Source: a virus
Taxonomy: Duplodnaviria > Heunggongvirae > Uroviricota > Caudoviricetes
Length of the DNA stretch: 34,974 bases
IMG/VR virus record: IMGVR_UViG_2778261250_000007
Reading direction: 5' to 3' (one strand)
Shown here: positions 935 through 26,516 of the stretch, piece after piece
Layout: every line of letters begins with the position of its first letter
How positions within the stretch are numbered: the first letter of the stretch is position 1
Notes under the pieces: model-generated
Database searches by the model: none
What the model saw: only the letters and a program-made list of their open reading frames with translations
Told to the model about the DNA's origin: nothing
Made by a program: the position numbers and the translations under genes

Positions 935-2620
935 GTGAATATAAACGTCGCCGAATTGTTAAATGGGAATTACATTCTGTTATTATTTGTGGTCCTCGCG
1001 CTTGGGCTATGTCTCGGAAAGTTACGACTTGGTTCGATCCAACTGGGTAATTCCATTGGCGTTTTAGTCGTATCGCTGTTATTAGGCCAACAACATTTCA
1101 GCATTAACACCGATGCGCTTAATCTTGGCTTTATGCTGTTTATTTTCTGCGTCGGGGTCGAAGCCGGACCGAACTTTTTTTCCATTTTTTTTCGCGATGG
1201 GAAAAATTACCTAATGTTAGCACTGGTGATGGTTGGCAGTGCGCTGGTGATCGCCTTAGGGTTAGGTAAGCTGTTTGGCTGGGATATTGGCCTGACGGCC
1301 GGTATGTTAGCAGGCTCTATGACGTCGACACCGGTTCTGGTCGGTGCTGGCGATACACTGCGTCATTCCGGCATGGAAAGCAGGCAGCTCTCACTGGCAC
1401 TGGATAATCTGAGCCTCGGGTATGCCTTAACCTATTTAATCGGTCTGGTGAGTTTGATTGTTGGTGCGCGTTACTTGCCGAAATTGCAGCATCAGGACTT
1501 ACAGACCAGCGCCCAGCAAATCGCCCGCGAACGTGGCCTGGACACTGATGCCAACCGTAAGGTTTATTTACCGGTGATCCGCGCCTATCGCGTCGGCCCG
1601 GAACTGGTGGCCTGGACCGACGGCAAAAATCTGCGTGAACTGGGTATTTATCGACAAACCGGCTGCTACATTGAACGTATTCGACGTAACGGGATTCTGG
1701 CAAATCCAGACGGTGATGCCGTGCTACAAATGGGCGATGAAATAGCGTTGGTAGGCTATCCCGACGCCCATGCCCGACTCGATCCCAGCTTCCGTAACGG
1801 TAAAGAAGTTTTCGATCGTGACCTTCTCGACATGCGTATCGTCACTGAAGAAGTGGTCGTTAAAAACCATAACGCTGTAGGTAAACGTCTCGCACAACTG
1901 AAGTTGACCGATCACGGTTGCTTCCTTAACCGCGTCATTCGTAGCCAGATTGAGATGCCGATAGATGACAACGTCGTGCTTAACAAAGGTGACGTTTTAC
2001 AAGTCAGCGGCGATGCCCGCCGCGTAAAAACCATCGCCGATCGCATCGGCTTTATCTCGATTCACAGCCAGGTCACTGACCTGCTGGCATTCTGCGCCTT
2101 CTTTGTTATTGGGCTGATGATCGGGATGATCACCTTCCAGTTCAGCACATTCAGTTTCGGCATGGGGAACGCTGCCGGGTTGTTATTCGCCGGAATTATG
2201 CTGGGCTTTATGCGTGCTAACCACCCGACCTTCGGTTACATTCCGCAAGGTGCATTAAGCATGGTGAAAGAGTTCGGCTTGATGGTGTTTATGGCAGGCG
2301 TTGGTCTGAGCGCCGGTAGCGGTATTAATAACGGCCTGGGCGCGATTGGCGGTCAGATGTTGATTGCCGGATTAATTGTCAGTCTTGTGCCCGTGGTTAT
2401 CTGTTTCTTGTTCGGTGCTTATGTATTGCGAATGAACCGCGCACTGTTGTTCGGCGCAATGATGGGCGCACGCACCTGCGCGCCGGCAATGGAGATCATC
2501 AGTGATACAGCTCGCAGTAACATCCCTGCGCTGGGCTATGCGGGCACCTACGCAATCGCCAACGTCCTGCTGACGCTGGCAGGGACAATCATCGTCATGG
2601 TATGGCCAGGATTAGGATAA
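935..2620 (+). CDS. ybjL: Putative AAE-family transporter YbjL
   Basis: 561-aa ORF with GTG start ([11 protein letters not shown]...), membrane domains flanking a soluble central region. Matches my recollection of E. coli YbjL. Confidence 0.85.
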
Positions 2621-2732
2621 AACTGAAGTTGCCCTGAAAATGAAATTTTTTTGCACAACCGCAGAACTTTTCCGCAGGGCATCAGTCTTAATTAGTGCCA
2701 CTGCTTTTCTTTGATGTCCCCATTTTGTGGAG

Positions 2733-2776
2733 CCCATCAACCCCGCCATTTCGGTTCAAGGTTGATGGGTTTTTTG
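2733..2776 (+). terminator. Terminator-like hairpin downstream of ybjL (cccatcaacc / ggttgatggg, 17-nt loop, then TTTTTTG)
   Basis: 10-bp perfect inverted repeat at 2733-2742 and 2760-2769 followed by a T-run. It lies in the host-prophage junction, so it may also be part of the attachment region. Confidence 0.35.
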
Positions 2777-2855
2777 TTGCCTGAAATTTATGCCGTTTAA
2801 AATCATGACGTTAGAAGCACTGTTTTTTAACGATGGCGACAAAATGGCGGCAGCG

Positions 2856-3074
2856 TCAAAGAGAGAGCGCCACCTGTCCTGATTTCATTGGATGCGGCTG
2901 AACCGGATTTGACTCTTTTGGCGTTGCAATCGAACGAACAAAAGTTTCATGGGTAACAAAAGTATGGCTGCAGTTAATGTTCTGGCACTGGTTGTAACGC
3001 TCTTTGGTCAATGAAGATACCTGAAAACTGCTGCGAGTATGGGCGGCACTTCCACACAGTGGGCAAATCATCAT
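2856..3074 (-). CDS. ogr: Late-gene transcriptional activator Ogr (zinc finger)
   Basis: 72-aa product MMICPLCGSAAHTRSS...QCQNINCSHTF with the C-x2-C...C-x4-C pattern typical of P2 Ogr. ATG at 3074 preceded by GGGGAGA; the track ORF is longer, and I chose the RBS-supported start. Confidence 0.8.
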   Translation of the reverse strand: MMICPLCGSAAHTRSSFQVSSLTKERYNQCQNINCSHTFVTHETFVRSIATPKESNPVQPHPMKSGQVALSL

Positions 3075-3164
3075 TTTTCGAGTTCTCCCCATTTTTGCTA
3101 AATTCACAATAATGATACCGCATTATTCCATTTTGCAAACTTAAAAGTTCTCCATTGCGAAGAA

Positions 3165-4265
3165 TCATTCCATTTCGAAATCATCAATCCTCACTTCAAG
3201 CTCCAGACTGGTCGTAAAACCGTTATCCGGGCTGACGGTATGTGTCAGAGTCGTAATGGTCCATTCCGCATCATCTATCGGCTGTTTAAAGCCACTGACT
3301 TTCACTGGCATTTCCGTGTAGAGATCTGCCCGCCCTTCTGCCAGTTGTAGCGAGAATGACGCAACGCCGCGTTGCAGGCGTTCCCACTGCATTTTCGCTG
3401 CCCGTTCAGCGTTGCTCCGGTTGGCATAAGTGCGATTAAGTACCAGCACATTTTCATCCGTACCCACCAGGTAATCGCCCTGCTTCGCTTCCGGCTCTTT
3501 CTTCTGCTTCTTAGTTCTGCGCTTACGCTTCACCGTGGTGCTTTCTTTCTTCGCAGGTTCGCGGGTATGCAACCAGCTGGCAATTACGCCCGTGTAGGCT
3601 CCGCGATCTGCCAGGGTAAAGCGGTGACTGTCGCCGTCCTTGCGTGTGATAGTGATCACTGGCAGTGGTTTACCAGTGGCGTTTTTGCCCTGTCCCTGCC
3701 GGATGAATAACAGATTGCCATTTTTCACCGACGCGATGGCACCGTACTGTCGCGCCAGCCGCATCAGAAAACTGCCGTCACTCTCATTAGTCTGGTCTAT
3801 ATGCTCCACGGGCTTATCCGACAGATCTTTACCCAGTGCCATCTTCAGCTTGTGCCGCGCGGCTATTTCCTTCACCACTTCCCCGACGGTGGTCTTGTGC
3901 CACGACTTTTCACGACGGGTATTCAGCGTTTCCCGAAAATCAGCACTTCGCGCCCGGATAGTCAGGCGGTCCGGTGCGCCAGTGTGTTCAATCTCGTCCA
4001 CCGTGAATGCCCCTTTCGGGAAAAGCGGCTGCCCCTTCCAGCCCAGCGCCAGCGTAATGACCGCACCACGGCGCGGCAGCACGATTTTTCCGTCGGCGTC
4101 GTCCAGCTCCAGATCAAGCTGGTCTGCGTCAAAGCCCCGGTTATCCGTCAGCGTCAGCCCCATCAGGCGGTTGTCCAGCACAGTGGTGATATCCCTGCCT
4201 TCAATACTGATGCTGAATGCCGGAGTTTTGTTGCCTTTGTTAAGCAGTTCAGAGCTGAAATTCAC
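3165..4265 (-). CDS. D: Tail protein D (late control D)
   Basis: 366 aa; position after U and before ogr. GTG start at 4265 with GGGAGGG upstream, overlapping the U stop (GTGA). Confidence 0.85.
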   Translation of the reverse strand: MNFSSELLNKGNKTPAFSISIEGRDITTVLDNRLMGLTLTDNRGFDADQLDLELDDADGKIVLPRRGAVITLALGWKGQPLFPKGAFTVDEIEHTGAPDRLTIRARSADFRETLNTRREKSWHKTTVGEVVKEIAARHKLKMALGKDLSDKPVEHIDQTNESDGSFLMRLARQYGAIASVKNGNLLFIRQGQGKNATGKPLPVITITRKDGDSHRFTLADRGAYTGVIASWLHTREPAKKESTTVKRKRRTKKQKKEPEAKQGDYLVGTDENVLVLNRTYANRSNAERAAKMQWERLQRGVASFSLQLAEGRADLYTEMPVKVSGFKQPIDDAEWTITTLTHTVSPDNGFTTSLELEVRIDDFEME

Positions 4266-13944: not shown

Positions 13945-14290
13945 TCTCTGCTCCTGTTGATACGGAAAGGGAAACAGGCACACCGTTATTACGCCGCCCG
14001 GTCAGCTCCACCACCATTGAACCGTCAAAATTGCTGTTAAGGGTGATGGAATCCAGCGTCAGCCGTGGCTCCCAGCGACTCAGCGCCACATACACTGCCG
14101 ACATGACCTGCAGGCGTAATGCCGGATTTTGTGGCTGGTCTATCAGTGCCGACAGCAGGGAACCATATTCCCGACGGGCAATGCGGCTACCCTGCGGCGT
14201 CAGCAAAATGTCCCGTACCGACTGGCGCAGATGGTCAATATCAGTAATGGCTTTACCGCTGGTATTGTTCATCCCGCTATAAAGCGTCAT
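13931..14290 (-). CDS. W: Baseplate wedge protein W
   Basis: 119 aa, ATG at 14290; synteny V-W-J. Confidence 0.8.
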   Translation of the reverse strand: MTLYSGMNNTSGKAITDIDHLRQSVRDILLTPQGSRIARREYGSLLSALIDQPQNPALRLQVMSAVYVALSRWEPRLTLDSITLNSNFDGSMVVELTGRRNNGVPVSLSVSTGAENGSD

Positions 14291-14865
14291 ACCGGGCCTC
14301 CGGTTGTATCGCCGCCTTTCAGGACGCCAGTATGCTGATGCGCATCAACCACGATCCCGTTAGAACTCATCGCTCCGCCGCCCTGAGTAACGCCACCATT
14401 GACCACCACTTCGCTGTTAATACGCGTGCACTCAGCCTCCAGCACAAACTCACTGGTTTTCAGGGTGATGTTATCGGCAGCCTCAATGACCATGGATTTG
14501 ATGCCCCTGACATACCAGCGCCCGGTGGCAGGTTCGTATTCAAACCAGCCACCGTCAGGATGTTCTGTCACGCAGGCATCCGCCGACGTCGACGGTGGTG
14601 CGAACTGATTCGAATAGACAGCGGGCAGCGCAAAGGCGGTTTCCAGATTGCCGCCCAGACTCAGCAGCACCACCTGCTCACCTTCCGATGGTCGCCACCA
14701 TGTGCGGGCATTCCCGGCACGCAGCGTCAGCCAGCTGATCCAGTTGGTTTCAAGCTCGCCCGTTTTCACCCGGCAAAGCCAGTGTTCCCGGTCCACTTCG
14801 GTGACTATCCCAGTGCGGATCAGGTTGGTGATAAGGCGCATGATTTCGGTTAGTTGTGCGTTCAT
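14287..14865 (-). CDS. V: Baseplate spike/hub protein V
   Basis: 192 aa, ATG at 14865, first gene of the V-W-J-I-H-G block. Confidence 0.8.
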   Translation of the reverse strand: MNAQLTEIMRLITNLIRTGIVTEVDREHWLCRVKTGELETNWISWLTLRAGNARTWWRPSEGEQVVLLSLGGNLETAFALPAVYSNQFAPPSTSADACVTEHPDGGWFEYEPATGRWYVRGIKSMVIEAADNITLKTSEFVLEAECTRINSEVVVNGGVTQGGGAMSSNGIVVDAHQHTGVLKGGDTTGGPV

Positions 14866-14911
14866 AAGGGGAGAATGACAGAAACAATTAATGAGAAGTA
14901 GCGTTGATATT

Positions 14912-14929
14912 TGTATGAAACTCTATACA
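14912..14929. promoter_or_regulatory. Ogr-type element TGT-N12-ACA upstream of V (late promoter PV)
   Basis: TGTATGAAACTCTATACA centred about 55 bp upstream of the V ATG, the same spacing as the element upstream of P. It overlaps a plus-strand sigma70-like pair TTGTAT(14911-14916)-18-TAGAAT(14935-14940) that could drive the cargo gene. Confidence 0.4.
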
Positions 14930-15002
14930 AAAACTAGAATTTCCAAGTCTTCGCAGATATATTATGTGGAGTTTTCTCATTGACATTATCCTAGGTATCA
15001 GA

Positions 15003-16709
15003 ATGGAACATCTAAAGCAACTACTAAAAAAAACTGAATTTATCGAAAAATACGGCATTGGGAATGCACATCTATTATGGGCCTTAGGTTTATATTTGGA
15101 CGAATCAGACTTTGACAAATTAGCCTCAGATGGTTTGACTGACGGAGGTAATGATAAAAAAATAGATTTCATTACTGTAATAAATTCAACTTTATTTATT
15201 GCGCAAGGTTATTACTGCACCCAAGATAAATTGAAAATTGTTGCGCCAGCAAATAAAGCTTCCGATCTCAACACTGCTTTAGCATGGATTATTTCAGGTT
15301 CTGGTCAATCACCAAATGAAAAATTAAGAGCTAAAATTGCTGAAGTTAGAAAACTTATTGACGATAATGAAATAGAAGCTGTAGAGCTTCTATATATTCA
15401 CAATTGTGCTGAGTCAGAACACGTAAGAGTTGAATTAGAAACATGTCGTGACTATTTAGCAAATCGCTTCTCTAATAAAGAGATAGAAGTAACCTGCAAA
15501 GAGTTGGGCGTATATAGCCTTGAAAAATTATATATTGCACTTTCGCAACAAATTGTAGTAAAAGATGATATAATTTTTGATGGTACTATTGTAGACTCGG
15601 TAGAAGGTGATGGTTGGACCTCACGTGTTGGCTTCGCTAATGGCAGTTGGCTGAACTCACTTTTCAAAACCCACGGCGCTGAATTATTCTCAGCTAACTA
15701 CCGTGGTTTTATGGGGTTGAGTAAAAGAAGAAAAATAAACTCTTCCATTAGAAGTACGGCAGAGACAACTCCTAAAGACTTTTTTGTTTTTAATAATGGA
15801 GTATCAATCCTTACAACAAAATTCAGACAAGATAATAATAAGGCAATTTTAGAGGGTATATCCATTATCAATGGAGCGCAAACTACTGGTTCCATAGGCT
15901 CTGTGCAAGATATACAAAAACTTGATGGATTGAAAGTACTATGTAAAGTTATTGAATGCAATGACGCAGATAAAGTAAAAAAAATAGTTCAATTTAATAA
16001 TACTCAAAACCATATCACGACCTGGGATCATTATTCAAATAGTCCAGAACAAAAGCAGGTAGAAGAAGAGTTTTCGACCTTAGGCTATATTTACTCGTTA
16101 AAAAGAGGCTTTGAGAATACTGGTTCTTTATTTGGTATTGAGTCAGTTGCACAACCCTTAATAGCTCTACATGGAGATTATGCAAGCGCAAACAGGGGTA
16201 AAAACTATGTTTTCGACACTAAAACTGCTTATGACAATGCATTTCATGAATCAAAAGCCCAACATATTCTATGTGCATATACCATTTCGAAAGCAATAGA
16301 AAAAGTCAAGGCACAGATTAAAAATAAAGATAATAAAATAACATCTGATGAAGACAACTTACTTTTCCTGCAAAACCTCAAGTCTCGCTTCTTTTTGATA
16401 TCTATAGTCGGTGAAATTCTGGAGGAACTGGCCGACAAACCATTAAATAAAAAGTTTGTTAAATATAAATATAATACTTCACTTGCAACAAACAATTCGC
16501 TAGACGACTTAATTAACCTATGGTCGCCAGTTATCGCTGCCATTCTACCCTTTATCATTAGAGTTACAGGTCAAGATCTAACAACTTACTTATCTGAAAC
16601 AGAAGATCCTTTGCATACCGTTGCCAGTGAAGTTAAAAACAATCTCAGATCCTTAAAAGCGTTTCAACCTATAGAACCATTAAGGATCTTAGCTGAAAAC
16701 TTAGAGTAA
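15003..16709 (+). CDS. AIPR-family (abortive infection phage resistance)-like protein; AT-rich cargo gene between S and V
   Basis: 569 aa from ATG 15003 (an alternative in-frame ATG at 14964 gives 581 aa). The motifs LTDGGNDKKIDF near the N-terminus and INGAQTTGSI match my recollection of AIPR-domain signatures. Strongly AT-rich and inserted in an otherwise conserved late-gene block. Confidence 0.55.
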   Translation: MEHLKQLLKKTEFIEKYGIGNAHLLWALGLYLDESDFDKLASDGLTDGGNDKKIDFITVINSTLFIAQGYYCTQDKLKIVAPANKASDLNTALAWIISGSGQSPNEKLRAKIAEVRKLIDDNEIEAVELLYIHNCAESEHVRVELETCRDYLANRFSNKEIEVTCKELGVYSLEKLYIALSQQIVVKDDIIFDGTIVDSVEGDGWTSRVGFANGSWLNSLFKTHGAELFSANYRGFMGLSKRRKINSSIRSTAETTPKDFFVFNNGVSILTTKFRQDNNKAILEGISIINGAQTTGSIGSVQDIQKLDGLKVLCKVIECNDADKVKKIVQFNNTQNHITTWDHYSNSPEQKQVEEEFSTLGYIYSLKRGFENTGSLFGIESVAQPLIALHGDYASANRGKNYVFDTKTAYDNAFHESKAQHILCAYTISKAIEKVKAQIKNKDNKITSDEDNLLFLQNLKSRFFLISIVGEILEELADKPLNKKFVKYKYNTSLATNNSLDDLINLWSPVIAAILPFIIRVTGQDLTTYLSETEDPLHTVASEVKNNLRSLKAFQPIEPLRILAENLE

Positions 16710-16715
16710 CAATTC

Positions 16716-16748
16716 TTGGGTGGCATTAAAACGCCACCCAACCATTTT
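16716..16748 (+). terminator. Intrinsic terminator downstream of the AIPR-like gene
   Basis: ttgggtggc / gccacccaa, a 9-bp stem with an 8-nt loop, followed by ccattttat, directly after the stop at 16707-16709. Confidence 0.5.
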
Positions 16749-16761
16749 ATATAATTGATTA

Positions 16762-17205
16762 TTATTTCAACCATCCTATTAAAACATCATAAATATGTTT
16801 TTCAATCCGTTCATTATTGCCAAGTAAACGCCGCTCTGCATAGCGGACCACCGGGCCTTTGCAACTGACGCGATCACGCAGGCCGTAATGGTGAACGCGG
16901 GCAATGCGCTGTACGTTACCTTCAAACTGCACGCTGGCAGAATCGGCGCTGGCGGCAGTTTTCAGGTATTTTGTGGTGCGCAGCTTTGTAAACATCTGAC
17001 GTTTGATGCGCCCCTTTTTACTACGTGCTGTTACCCTTCGCGGTTCATAGCTGCTGCCATCAGGATTACGCTGCATCCTGATGTTCTGCTGCTGTGTCCG
17101 GCGCAGTTCCTGCGCCAGCTGGCGCATCATGCGGCTTCTTGCGGCTGGCTCCAGATTCGCCAGCAAGGCACTCAGCCAGTCGTCCACCTTCTGCAATTCA
17201 GCCAC
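16762..17205 (-). CDS. S: Tail completion protein S
   Basis: 147 aa; GTG start at 17205 overlapping the R stop; synteny R-S. Confidence 0.8.
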   Translation of the reverse strand: MAELQKVDDWLSALLANLEPAARSRMMRQLAQELRRTQQQNIRMQRNPDGSSYEPRRVTARSKKGRIKRQMFTKLRTTKYLKTAASADSASVQFEGNVQRIARVHHYGLRDRVSCKGPVVRYAERRLLGNNERIEKHIYDVLIGWLK

Positions 17206-25167: not shown

Positions 25168-25785
25168 TTACCAGTTAAAAATTGATGAGCTGCGAATTGC
25201 AGGAACATCCGATGGATTTCGTTTAGCAGCTGGTTCCATCAACTTACGCTTATTAAATGCCTGATCAATATAATACTCAGGATTTTTAATAAAGACAGAG
25301 TATTTTACCAATGCACAATATACGTCAGAGTCATTATAATGGGGAACTGTTTTTTCATAAACATGATTCTTTCTAACCAGATAAGGCAAATAATAATCAT
25401 ATCCCAAACCTGGCGTTCTTAGACTTATAGAACATCCGCATGATGGATCTGCACATACTGCAGGAGTAAACACACTGTCGTAAATTTCATCTCTGATAAC
25501 ACCAATTAGACCATTATAGTTTTCTCCCCAGAGTGATGCTTGAATTTCAGTGTTTACAAATGGACGATTTTTGGTTTCCGTTCCAATAAGAACGACAGTA
25601 ACCGTTGAGTCTTTTAAAAAATCCTCACGAATAGTCCTCATTATTGTTTCATCAGTGTTAGTTGTACTAATGTCACCATCACTTACCGACTTATCAATAA
25701 ACGATTCTCCTCCGAATAAATCAATAATCTCATCTTTGAGATCTTGTTCGTTAGCATGATGATAACTAAGAAACGTCTTATGCAT
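25168..25785 (-). CDS. ThsB-like TIR-domain protein (TIR_like/DUF1863 type)
   Basis: 205 aa. N-terminal TFLSYHHANEQD and central STVTVVLIGTETKNRPFVNTEI resemble my recollection of Bacillus ThsB (VFFSFHYQDV and TSVTCVLIGSQTFNRRWVRYEI). ATG at 25785 preceded by GGAGTG and overlapping the upstream gene's TAA (TAATG). AT-rich. Confidence 0.7.
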   Translation of the reverse strand: MHKTFLSYHHANEQDLKDEIIDLFGGESFIDKSVSDGDISTTNTDETIMRTIREDFLKDSTVTVVLIGTETKNRPFVNTEIQASLWGENYNGLIGVIRDEIYDSVFTPAVCADPSCGCSISLRTPGLGYDYYLPYLVRKNHVYEKTVPHYNDSDVYCALVKYSVFIKNPEYYIDQAFNKRKLMEPAAKRNPSDVPAIRSSSIFNW

Positions 25786-26516
25786 TATTCACTCCATTTA
25801 TCAACATTTATATCAAACTCTTTGACTACCTTATCATTGAAGAAATCGTTTACTTCTTTAAAACCTTCCAATACTTGACTAAAATGATAATAATGCTTTT
25901 GTATAATACTTATAGGGGTTAAATGATACGGCAATGATATAAATTCGCCGTTAGGGTCTCTATCCTTTGTGGTCACTTTATCATGATCTGAAACATATTT
26001 ATGCCATCTCCGATAATTATTTTGATGTTTTGTTAAAAAAGAGTTTAAGGTTTTCAAAATTTCATTTGAAAGTAAATACAGTTTTTTATCTCTTTTTTTC
26101 TTCACATCTAGTAATTTCATTTCATCTCTAATGAATTTATAGCACTCATAATATGAGTTTAAAACTTCTTCAATTGAGTCATAATTCGGATCAAATTTAA
26201 ATAATGTTCGCTTCGTATCCAGATAATTTTTTACGCTCTTTTTAAAAAGAAGATCAGACTTATTTAGTAAAATATTAATACCACCAAAACTAAGTTGCTC
26301 CAATCTCAATGAATATCTTTGATGAAATGCACCGACCAGCAAGATATAAGCAACTAAAAATAGTATTAATACTGATAAAAAAGCACGAATTATGCTTACA
26401 TTTGACATGAAATTAACTATAAACCACCATTTTTCAAACGGTGAAAACGGAATGCTCCCCATGATAATAAGTAGAAGAACAAAGATACAACTCCATAAAA
26501 CCCACAATCTGTACAT
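25785..26516 (-). CDS. Two-TM membrane protein with a ~170-aa helical cytoplasmic domain; candidate effector partner of the TIR protein
   Basis: 243 aa from ATG at 26516 (RBS AAGGA). TM helices LWVLWSCIFVLLLIIMGSIPF and IIRAFLSVLILFLVAYILLVGAF. The soluble domain has no motifs I can assign (no Macro or SIR2 hallmarks). AT-rich; translationally coupled to the TIR gene. Confidence 0.6.
   Translation of the reverse strand: MYRLWVLWSCIFVLLLIIMGSIPFSPFEKWWFIVNFMSNVSIIRAFLSVLILFLVAYILLVGAFHQRYSLRLEQLSFGGINILLNKSDLLFKKSVKNYLDTKRTLFKFDPNYDSIEEVLNSYYECYKFIRDEMKLLDVKKKRDKKLYLLSNEILKTLNSFLTKHQNNYRRWHKYVSDHDKVTTKDRDPNGEFISLPYHLTPISIIQKHYYHFSQVLEGFKEVNDFFNDKVVKEFDINVDKWSE

Follow-up and report, generated by a model that had tools for sequence, protein, structure and literature searches.

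The junction between tail genes S and V in a P2/186-like prophage of Escherichia coli carries a single cargo gene for a stand-alone member of the AIPR (AbiU1/AIPR) family. The prophage is integrated beside ybjL, and the window analyzed here, the whole 34,974-nucleotide stretch recorded as IMGVR_UViG_2778261250_000007, is identical to a segment of NZ_OZ501612.1. We think it likely that the gene is a horizontally acquired moron, most probably one that shields the lysogen from attack by other phages. Its product is predicted to consist of three parts, an N-terminal nuclease of the PD-(D/E)xK fold, a ParB/sulfiredoxin-like core of the DndB/DUF262 type and a variable helical C-terminal domain.

The family assignment is clear. 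The translated open reading frame (ORF) matches the Pfam AIPR profile (PF10592) with 93.3 bits against a gathering cut-off of 25 (E = 3e-26, residues 242–452 of the 581-residue ORF), and with 96.2 bits when the core region is searched alone. The membership that a preliminary description of this DNA had proposed from sequence motifs is borne out by the profile. PHROG 1841 is matched over the full length (5.6e-150), and the best match in the PADLOC defence library is AbiU (PDLC02357, E = 5.1e-28), extending over most of the model (positions 124–513 of 537, ~72%). More than 1,500 homologs are found in Proteobacteria, Firmicutes, Bacteroidota, Cyanobacteria, Nitrospirota and Acidobacteriota. The core motifs NNG, (I/V)NGAQT and NNxQN are invariant in 32 homologs, and the same motifs align in the P4-borne AIPR described by Rousset 2022 and in a Klebsiella-phage AIPR; polar residues are invariant across phyla. 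The sequence INGAQTTGSI lies inside the Pfam match, and is indeed an AIPR motif as had been proposed. A second sequence put forward as such, LTDGGNDKKIDF, falls outside the match and is instead the motif of the N-terminal PD-(D/E)xK-like domain. Searching the PDB by sequence gave no match, whether the query was the single protein or the family profile.

The gene stands out from its surroundings. It is an AT-rich ORF (GC fraction 0.34 over 15001–16500, compared with ~0.55 in the flanks) on the strand opposite to the tail genes, and the identity of those genes is confirmed by Pfam, for gpW and gpR (minus strand) as well as for gpV and gpS. In these respects the locus is just as first described. 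The second in-frame ATG of the ORF is the likely start of the gene. The RefSeq/PGAP start of WP_049032186.1 (‘AIPR family protein’) is at the equivalent position, and the 568-residue product that results is in line with homolog lengths of 565–575 residues (>100 homologs). Of the range of 569–581 residues given earlier for the ORF, the upper figure stands while the lower is one residue too many.

How might such a protein be built? An AlphaFold2 model was calculated from a 32-sequence alignment, with a mean predicted local distance difference test (pLDDT) score of 80.8. In the model the N-terminal domain has the alpha-beta-beta-beta-alpha-beta arrangement of the restriction-endonuclease-like fold, and its fold matches are to PD-(D/E)xK proteins. 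The core, residues 183–445, was also modelled alone (pLDDT 82.8), giving weak but coherent matches to ParB/sulfiredoxin folds, namely PadC (5.3), sulfiredoxin (5.1), ParB-N (4.6), KorB (4.5), BrxU (4.4) and SspE (3.4), together with SbnI and SerK. It contains the invariant motifs LFSANYRGF, NNG, INGAQTT, NNTQN, WD and KR, of which the ParB-like INGAQTT is without the arginine of DGQHR-type motifs. The C-terminal domain is modelled with helices only and with pLDDT >90, yet is the least conserved part of the protein; it gave no family match in a permissive Pfam scan, and we infer that it is a sensor or an oligomerization module. Permissive scans of the three regions returned AIPR for the core only and nothing for the N-terminal 225 residues, and a Foldseek search of the PDB with the full-length model gave no significant match (best E 0.1). 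The predicted folds agree with published predictions, in which AbiU1/AIPR/COG1479 belongs to the ParB superfamily and frequently occurs in fusion with other nucleases (Makarova 2013), and an AlphaFold2 model of the lactococcal AbiUi superimposes on FokI (2026 review). An N-terminal HEPN domain, as stated for AIPR proteins (Makarova 2012), was considered and rejected, as there is no Rx4-6H among the invariant residues and the fold matches PD-(D/E)xK.

The conserved residues of the N-terminal domain can be written as T46-D47..D51-K-K-I-D55..Q68-G-Y70..N84-K85-A-S-D88-L-N90..H133-N134..E137, of which T46, D47, D51, D55, Q68, K85, D88, N90, H133, N134 and E137 are invariant. Profile comparison with the P4-borne AIPR (hhalign, 99.4% probability over 313 columns) aligns Q68-G-Y70 with a canonical Q-S-K. 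In Klebsiella P2-like phages the A-Q hotspot holds a 30%-identical AIPR, whose sequence reads Q-C-Y and then APANKASDLN. With Q-C-Y in one protein and Q-G-Y in the other, there is therefore a clade that does without the canonical lysine, and the invariant K85 nearby may replace it. A bolder proposal, which we regard as improbable, is that this is a widespread stand-alone AIPR clade having a non-canonical nuclease centre (QxY, with the lysine supplied from the APANKASDLN helix) controlled by a ParB-like domain whose nucleotide-binding motif has lost its arginine, carried in cassettes that bring their own C-terminus of the S protein. If it were true, defence by a single protein gated by a nucleotide or DNA would work here by a new kind of mechanism, with cargo exchange tied to a structural gene. 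In the AIPR coding sequence of Klebsiella phage ST512-KPC3phi13.2 (3307–4752 of the retrieved segment, 481 residues) the annotated start appears to be too far downstream; the frame extends upstream to an ATG, adding the region of the N-terminal nuclease motif (ITDGHDDKKCD...AQCYF).

These elements suggest how the protein might act. The ParB-like core probably binds a nucleotide or DNA, and together with the C-terminal domain could form a sensor or switch through which the nuclease is allowed to attack nucleic acid once infection is under way. Expressed in the lysogen, the gene would have a promoter of its own, pointing away from the late promoter of V, and its transcript would end at a hairpin that it has in common with the convergent S gene.

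The S–V junction is plainly a site of variable cargo. Only 68 nucleotides lie between S and V in most close relatives, among them Escherichia phage 500465-1 and many P2-like phages of Klebsiella, so the description of the gene as a single-gene cargo at a junction that is empty in most relatives is accurate. From the 1,047 E. coli records matching the flanks we drew a sample at even steps, and S and V are joined in 52 of the sampled rows. The site is empty in 33 of the 52 (a 1,094-bp configuration), while each of the other 19 holds a single, different gene, coding for DUF6216 (7), TIR (2), FRG (1), AIPR (1) or hypothetical proteins (8). Presence and absence of varied cargo between conserved core genes is what is expected of a cargo hotspot. 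An AIPR gene occupies the junction in 9 E. coli genomes, and the present allele is found in 5 of 5,426 complete genomes at 99.9–100% identity; a sister allele with 83% protein identity lies at the same site and in the same orientation in other prophages. The variability of the junction had been anticipated from its correspondence to the orf30 position of P2, and this too is upheld, in position and in orientation. The P2 layout runs S, a rho-independent terminator assigned to the O operon, orf30 (non-essential and in reverse orientation), the pV activator-binding site, and V, and annotation of the P2 genome has marked the place of orf30 as non-essential from the outset. Klebsiella phage Kp4865-2 has another cargo at S–V, a 503-residue protein with a Walker A motif (1706–3217, minus strand, of the retrieved segment), encoded on the late-gene strand. 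This P-loop nucleoside triphosphatase (NTPase) has weak matches of the STAND/AAA type (best E ~0.003), and may be an uncharacterized defence NTPase.

The boundaries of the cassette can be placed closely. The variable module extends from the start codon of V (14866) to ~16828, inside the 3′ end of S, the point from which the DNA again resembles that of other P2-like phages. S is ~98% identical except for its last ~18 residues, which vary with the cargo (AIPR allele 1, allele 2, NTPase cargo or empty). One boundary falls within an essential structural gene, that of the tail-completion protein S. Insertion of the transposon type was rejected, since neither direct nor inverted repeats flank the cargo; it is therefore likely that cassettes, bounded by the V start codon and the 3′ end of S, are exchanged by recombination in conserved flanks, as proposed for other P2 hotspots.

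The gene has been under long-standing purifying selection, as seen in the low proportion of nonsynonymous differences (pN 0.10–0.16) against a saturated synonymous proportion (pS 0.77–0.84) between the two S–V alleles and a plasmid allele. Because synonymous sites are saturated while the flanking phage genes are ~95% identical, the alleles did not diverge in place. The plasmid allele is 78% identical and is found on ~40 Klebsiella plasmids (NZ_CP009116.1, 3001–4701 of the retrieved segment), where it adjoins an IS3 transposase, with a gene for a NACHT-domain protein not far away. Plasmids, prophages and chromosomes thus exchange members of the same subfamily. Distant homologs have as neighbors thrABC (Aeromonas), an nSTAND/NNH5 conflict locus, a serine recombinase (Clostridium), metabolic genes, and insertion sequence (IS) elements (Klebsiella plasmids). 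No conserved neighbor was found in Aeromonas, Clostridium, two metagenomic genomes and the Klebsiella plasmids, and with nothing common to these settings the protein therefore works alone.

The promoter hexamers, dyad and hairpin of the preliminary description are all where it placed them, but the roles it gave them need revision. TTGTAT (14911–16) and TAGAAT (14935–40) agree with the consensus at 8 of 12 positions, and the pair was not called by a promoter scan; the region as a whole has five promoter-like sites, compared with 7.3 expected from shuffled sequences. In the sister allele the candidate −10 element reads TGGCAA, and the assignment as the promoter of the gene is not supported. The sister allele and the plasmid copy retain part of an AT-rich block at 14955–14990. 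The dyad is a real Ogr-type sequence, but it is not specific to the cargo, being kept in the empty site, in Kp4865-2 with its other cargo, and in the sister allele. In the P2 annotation an activator-binding site lies upstream of V, with V-operon transcription starting at the first base of V. The dyad is therefore a conserved late-promoter element of the V operon. No Shine-Dalgarno sequence lies upstream of V in the window; from the spacing of the dyad and the P2 start at the first V base (P2 record 2240–2309), a leaderless V mRNA is implied. The hairpin has 9 pairs followed by CCATTTTATA, with a folding free energy of −16.9 kcal/mol on the plus strand (z −3.8) and −19.3 kcal/mol on the minus strand (z about −3.7 for the two together). 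In the 83%-identical sister allele the outer pairs have compensatory changes (−22.6 kcal/mol, z −6.1). An intrinsic terminator had been assigned at 16716–16748 to the cargo itself; the hairpin is present and conserved, but lying between convergent genes and at the position of the P2 O-operon terminator it probably serves the S transcript as well. The coordinates of all these features are collected in Table 1.

Table 1. Features of the S–V cassette and its flanking genes in the window
Feature	Position	Strand	Remarks
gpV	14287–14865	−	Phage_base_V, 7.5e-18
Divergent intergenic region expected to hold the AIPR promoter	14866–15002	+	TTGTAT-18-TAGAAT, one weak candidate
TGT-N12-ACA dyad, Ogr/Delta-type activator site of the V-operon late promoter	14912–14929	−	Centre 55 nucleotides from V ATG
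Mechanical ORF	14964–16709	+	581 residues, from ORF list
AIPR family (AbiU-type) protein gene	15003–16709	+	568 residues, from second in-frame ATG
Predicted N-terminal PD-(D/E)xK-like nuclease-fold domain	15108–15545	+	Residues ~36–181
AIPR core, predicted ParB/sulfiredoxin-like fold	15549–16337	+	Residues 183–445
C-terminal all-helical domain (predicted)	16338–16706	+	Residues ~446–568
GC-rich hairpin, probable bidirectional intrinsic terminator	16716–16741		Between convergent AIPR and S genes
gpS	16762–17205	−	Phage_tail_S, 1e-39
Cassette-specific 3′ end of gene S	16762–16828	−	Last ~18–22 codons; S-side module boundary

How firmly, then, can a defensive function be assigned? The suggestion that the gene is a moron giving protection against superinfection is sound as regards an AIPR cargo, while the defence itself is as yet a prediction, for this protein and for its subfamily. 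Findings on related proteins count against it. The P4-borne AIPR (pFR77), the only AIPR cloned from a P2 or P4 hotspot, is placed by Rousset 2022 among the ‘additional tested systems’ of Table S2B and not among the validated ones. The lactococcal AbiU lowers plaquing by 10- to 100-fold only, by a route described as delayed phage transcription, as the 2026 review recounts from Dai 2001. The catalytic D...(D/E/Q)xK signature is incomplete, in that D47, D51, D55 and Q68 are invariant but the position of the lysine is taken by a nearly invariant Tyr70. Neither the promoter scan nor comparison with the sister allele gave a convincing or conserved sigma-70 promoter for the gene. Some of these points would suit a selfish or addiction-type toxin, or a passenger kept by its mobility, giving no phage protection under natural expression, for example through H-NS silencing of the AT-rich island. 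The status of the P4 protein and the poor promoter fit such an element, as do the rarity of the allele and of AIPR at the junction, and the homologs on plasmids beside IS elements and beside a serine recombinase. The GC fraction of the gene is typical of H-NS targets, and a preprint concerns H-NS silencing of immunity loci. Yet purifying selection has been strong over saturated synonymous divergence, protein length is conserved across many phyla, and the subfamily recurs in known P2 and P4 defence hotspots and beside an nSTAND conflict system; the gene is therefore unlike a functionless passenger, and we consider this explanation improbable.

The gene might alternatively serve the prophage itself, in the lytic cycle or against a satellite, either by degrading host or P4 DNA or as a DNA-binding regulator acting through the ParB-like domain. 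Most close relatives have nothing at this site, so the phage can do without the gene; moreover the same subfamily is found outside phages, in chromosomes and plasmids, and the gene is antisense to late transcription. These facts make a role of this kind very unlikely, even though the overlap of the promoter region with the Ogr-dependent pV activator site would allow a change of expression at late times, DndB and KorB are DNA-binding regulators of the ParB fold, and the canonical nuclease lysine is missing. That the gene encodes a structural or morphogenetic component of the tail is scarcely credible. Its position inside the tail gene block is all that speaks for this, against the opposite strand, the foreign base composition, the absence from most relatives with intact S and V, and family matches that are to AIPR/AbiU only. 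Protection of the lysogen by an AIPR protein thus remains the reading we favor.

The identification is correct, but both the gene family and the cargo site were known before, and the finding is largely ordinary. AIPR cargos have been reported in the P4 hotspot and the A-Q hotspot of P2 (Rousset 2022), and AbiU in both P2 and P4, along with a defence hotspot within the P2 tail genes (Moura de Sousa 2026). With the RefSeq name, the PHROG family and the orf30 annotation of P2 added to these, the gene is a new example of a familiar family in a familiar place, and neither will surprise specialists. It provides one more documented P2-like prophage whose cargo site among the tail genes is occupied by a presumed defence gene. 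What the analysis adds is the exact boundaries of the cassette, the exchange of the S C-terminus, the QxY variant of the active site, and corrected assignments for the promoter, dyad and terminator. The AIPR family has been known since 2001, and we know of no solved structure and no biochemistry for any member. A compact, stand-alone and well-conserved AIPR protein in an E. coli background is thus a practical subject for studying the mechanism of the family.

The window has a second AT-rich island (25168–26516, minus strand, GC fraction 0.28–0.34) at the classic A-Q hotspot of P2, between the replication endonuclease and the portal. It encodes a ThsB-like TIR protein of 205 residues (PF08937, 1e-14; PADLOC ThsB, 4e-12), followed by a 243-residue protein without family match; this pair (WP_000549632 and WP_000286099) recurs in Table S5A of Rousset 2022. 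Taken with the AIPR cargo, the prophage therefore has two candidate defence cargos. In the chromosomal flank the host small RNA gene RybB (Rfam RF00110, 105 bits) lies at 2700–2778 (plus strand), ~150 bp outside the prophage at the end marked by ogr (~2856–3074).

Comparison with known systems places the cargo in context. In position and layout it is identical to P2 orf30, but the latter encodes an unrelated protein of 261 residues that has no family match. The AbiU of Lactococcus lactis (AbiUi/AbiU1) is likewise a single protein of ~570–590 residues, and its PADLOC profile aligns to residues 118–526. However, the comparison is by profile only, and the first ~117 residues, which contain the nuclease motif, are not aligned to the AbiU model; delayed transcription and modest protection are known for the Lactococcus protein only and for no enterobacterial homolog. 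The lactococcal AbiU was not returned by a tblastn search of plasmids. The type IV restriction systems GmrSD, BrxU and SspE (DUF262 + DUF1524) offer an analogy in the logic of the mechanism only, whereby a ParB-like NTPase controls a fused nuclease. In the prophage protein the order of domains is reversed, the nuclease is PD-(D/E)xK-like rather than of the HNH type, and INGAQTT stands in place of DGQQR/DGQHR, with no detectable sequence relationship. MzaE of the MZA system has the AIPR core in common (NCBIfam NF041935, 4.2e-14; PADLOC MzaE, 1.5e-10), over residues ~224–372 only. Membership of that system was rejected, with 52 bits against an equivalog cut-off of 1050, and with the phage genes S and V as neighbors in place of the other Mza genes. 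As regards the AIPR family at large, the motifs NNG, (I/V)NGAQT and NN(T/R)QN are common to the prophage and P4-borne proteins, and the predicted architecture is as published, a ParB-superfamily core with another nuclease. Within that family the prophage clade is set apart by an N-terminal nuclease motif that reads QxY where others have QxK, and by the invariant APANKASDLN helix.

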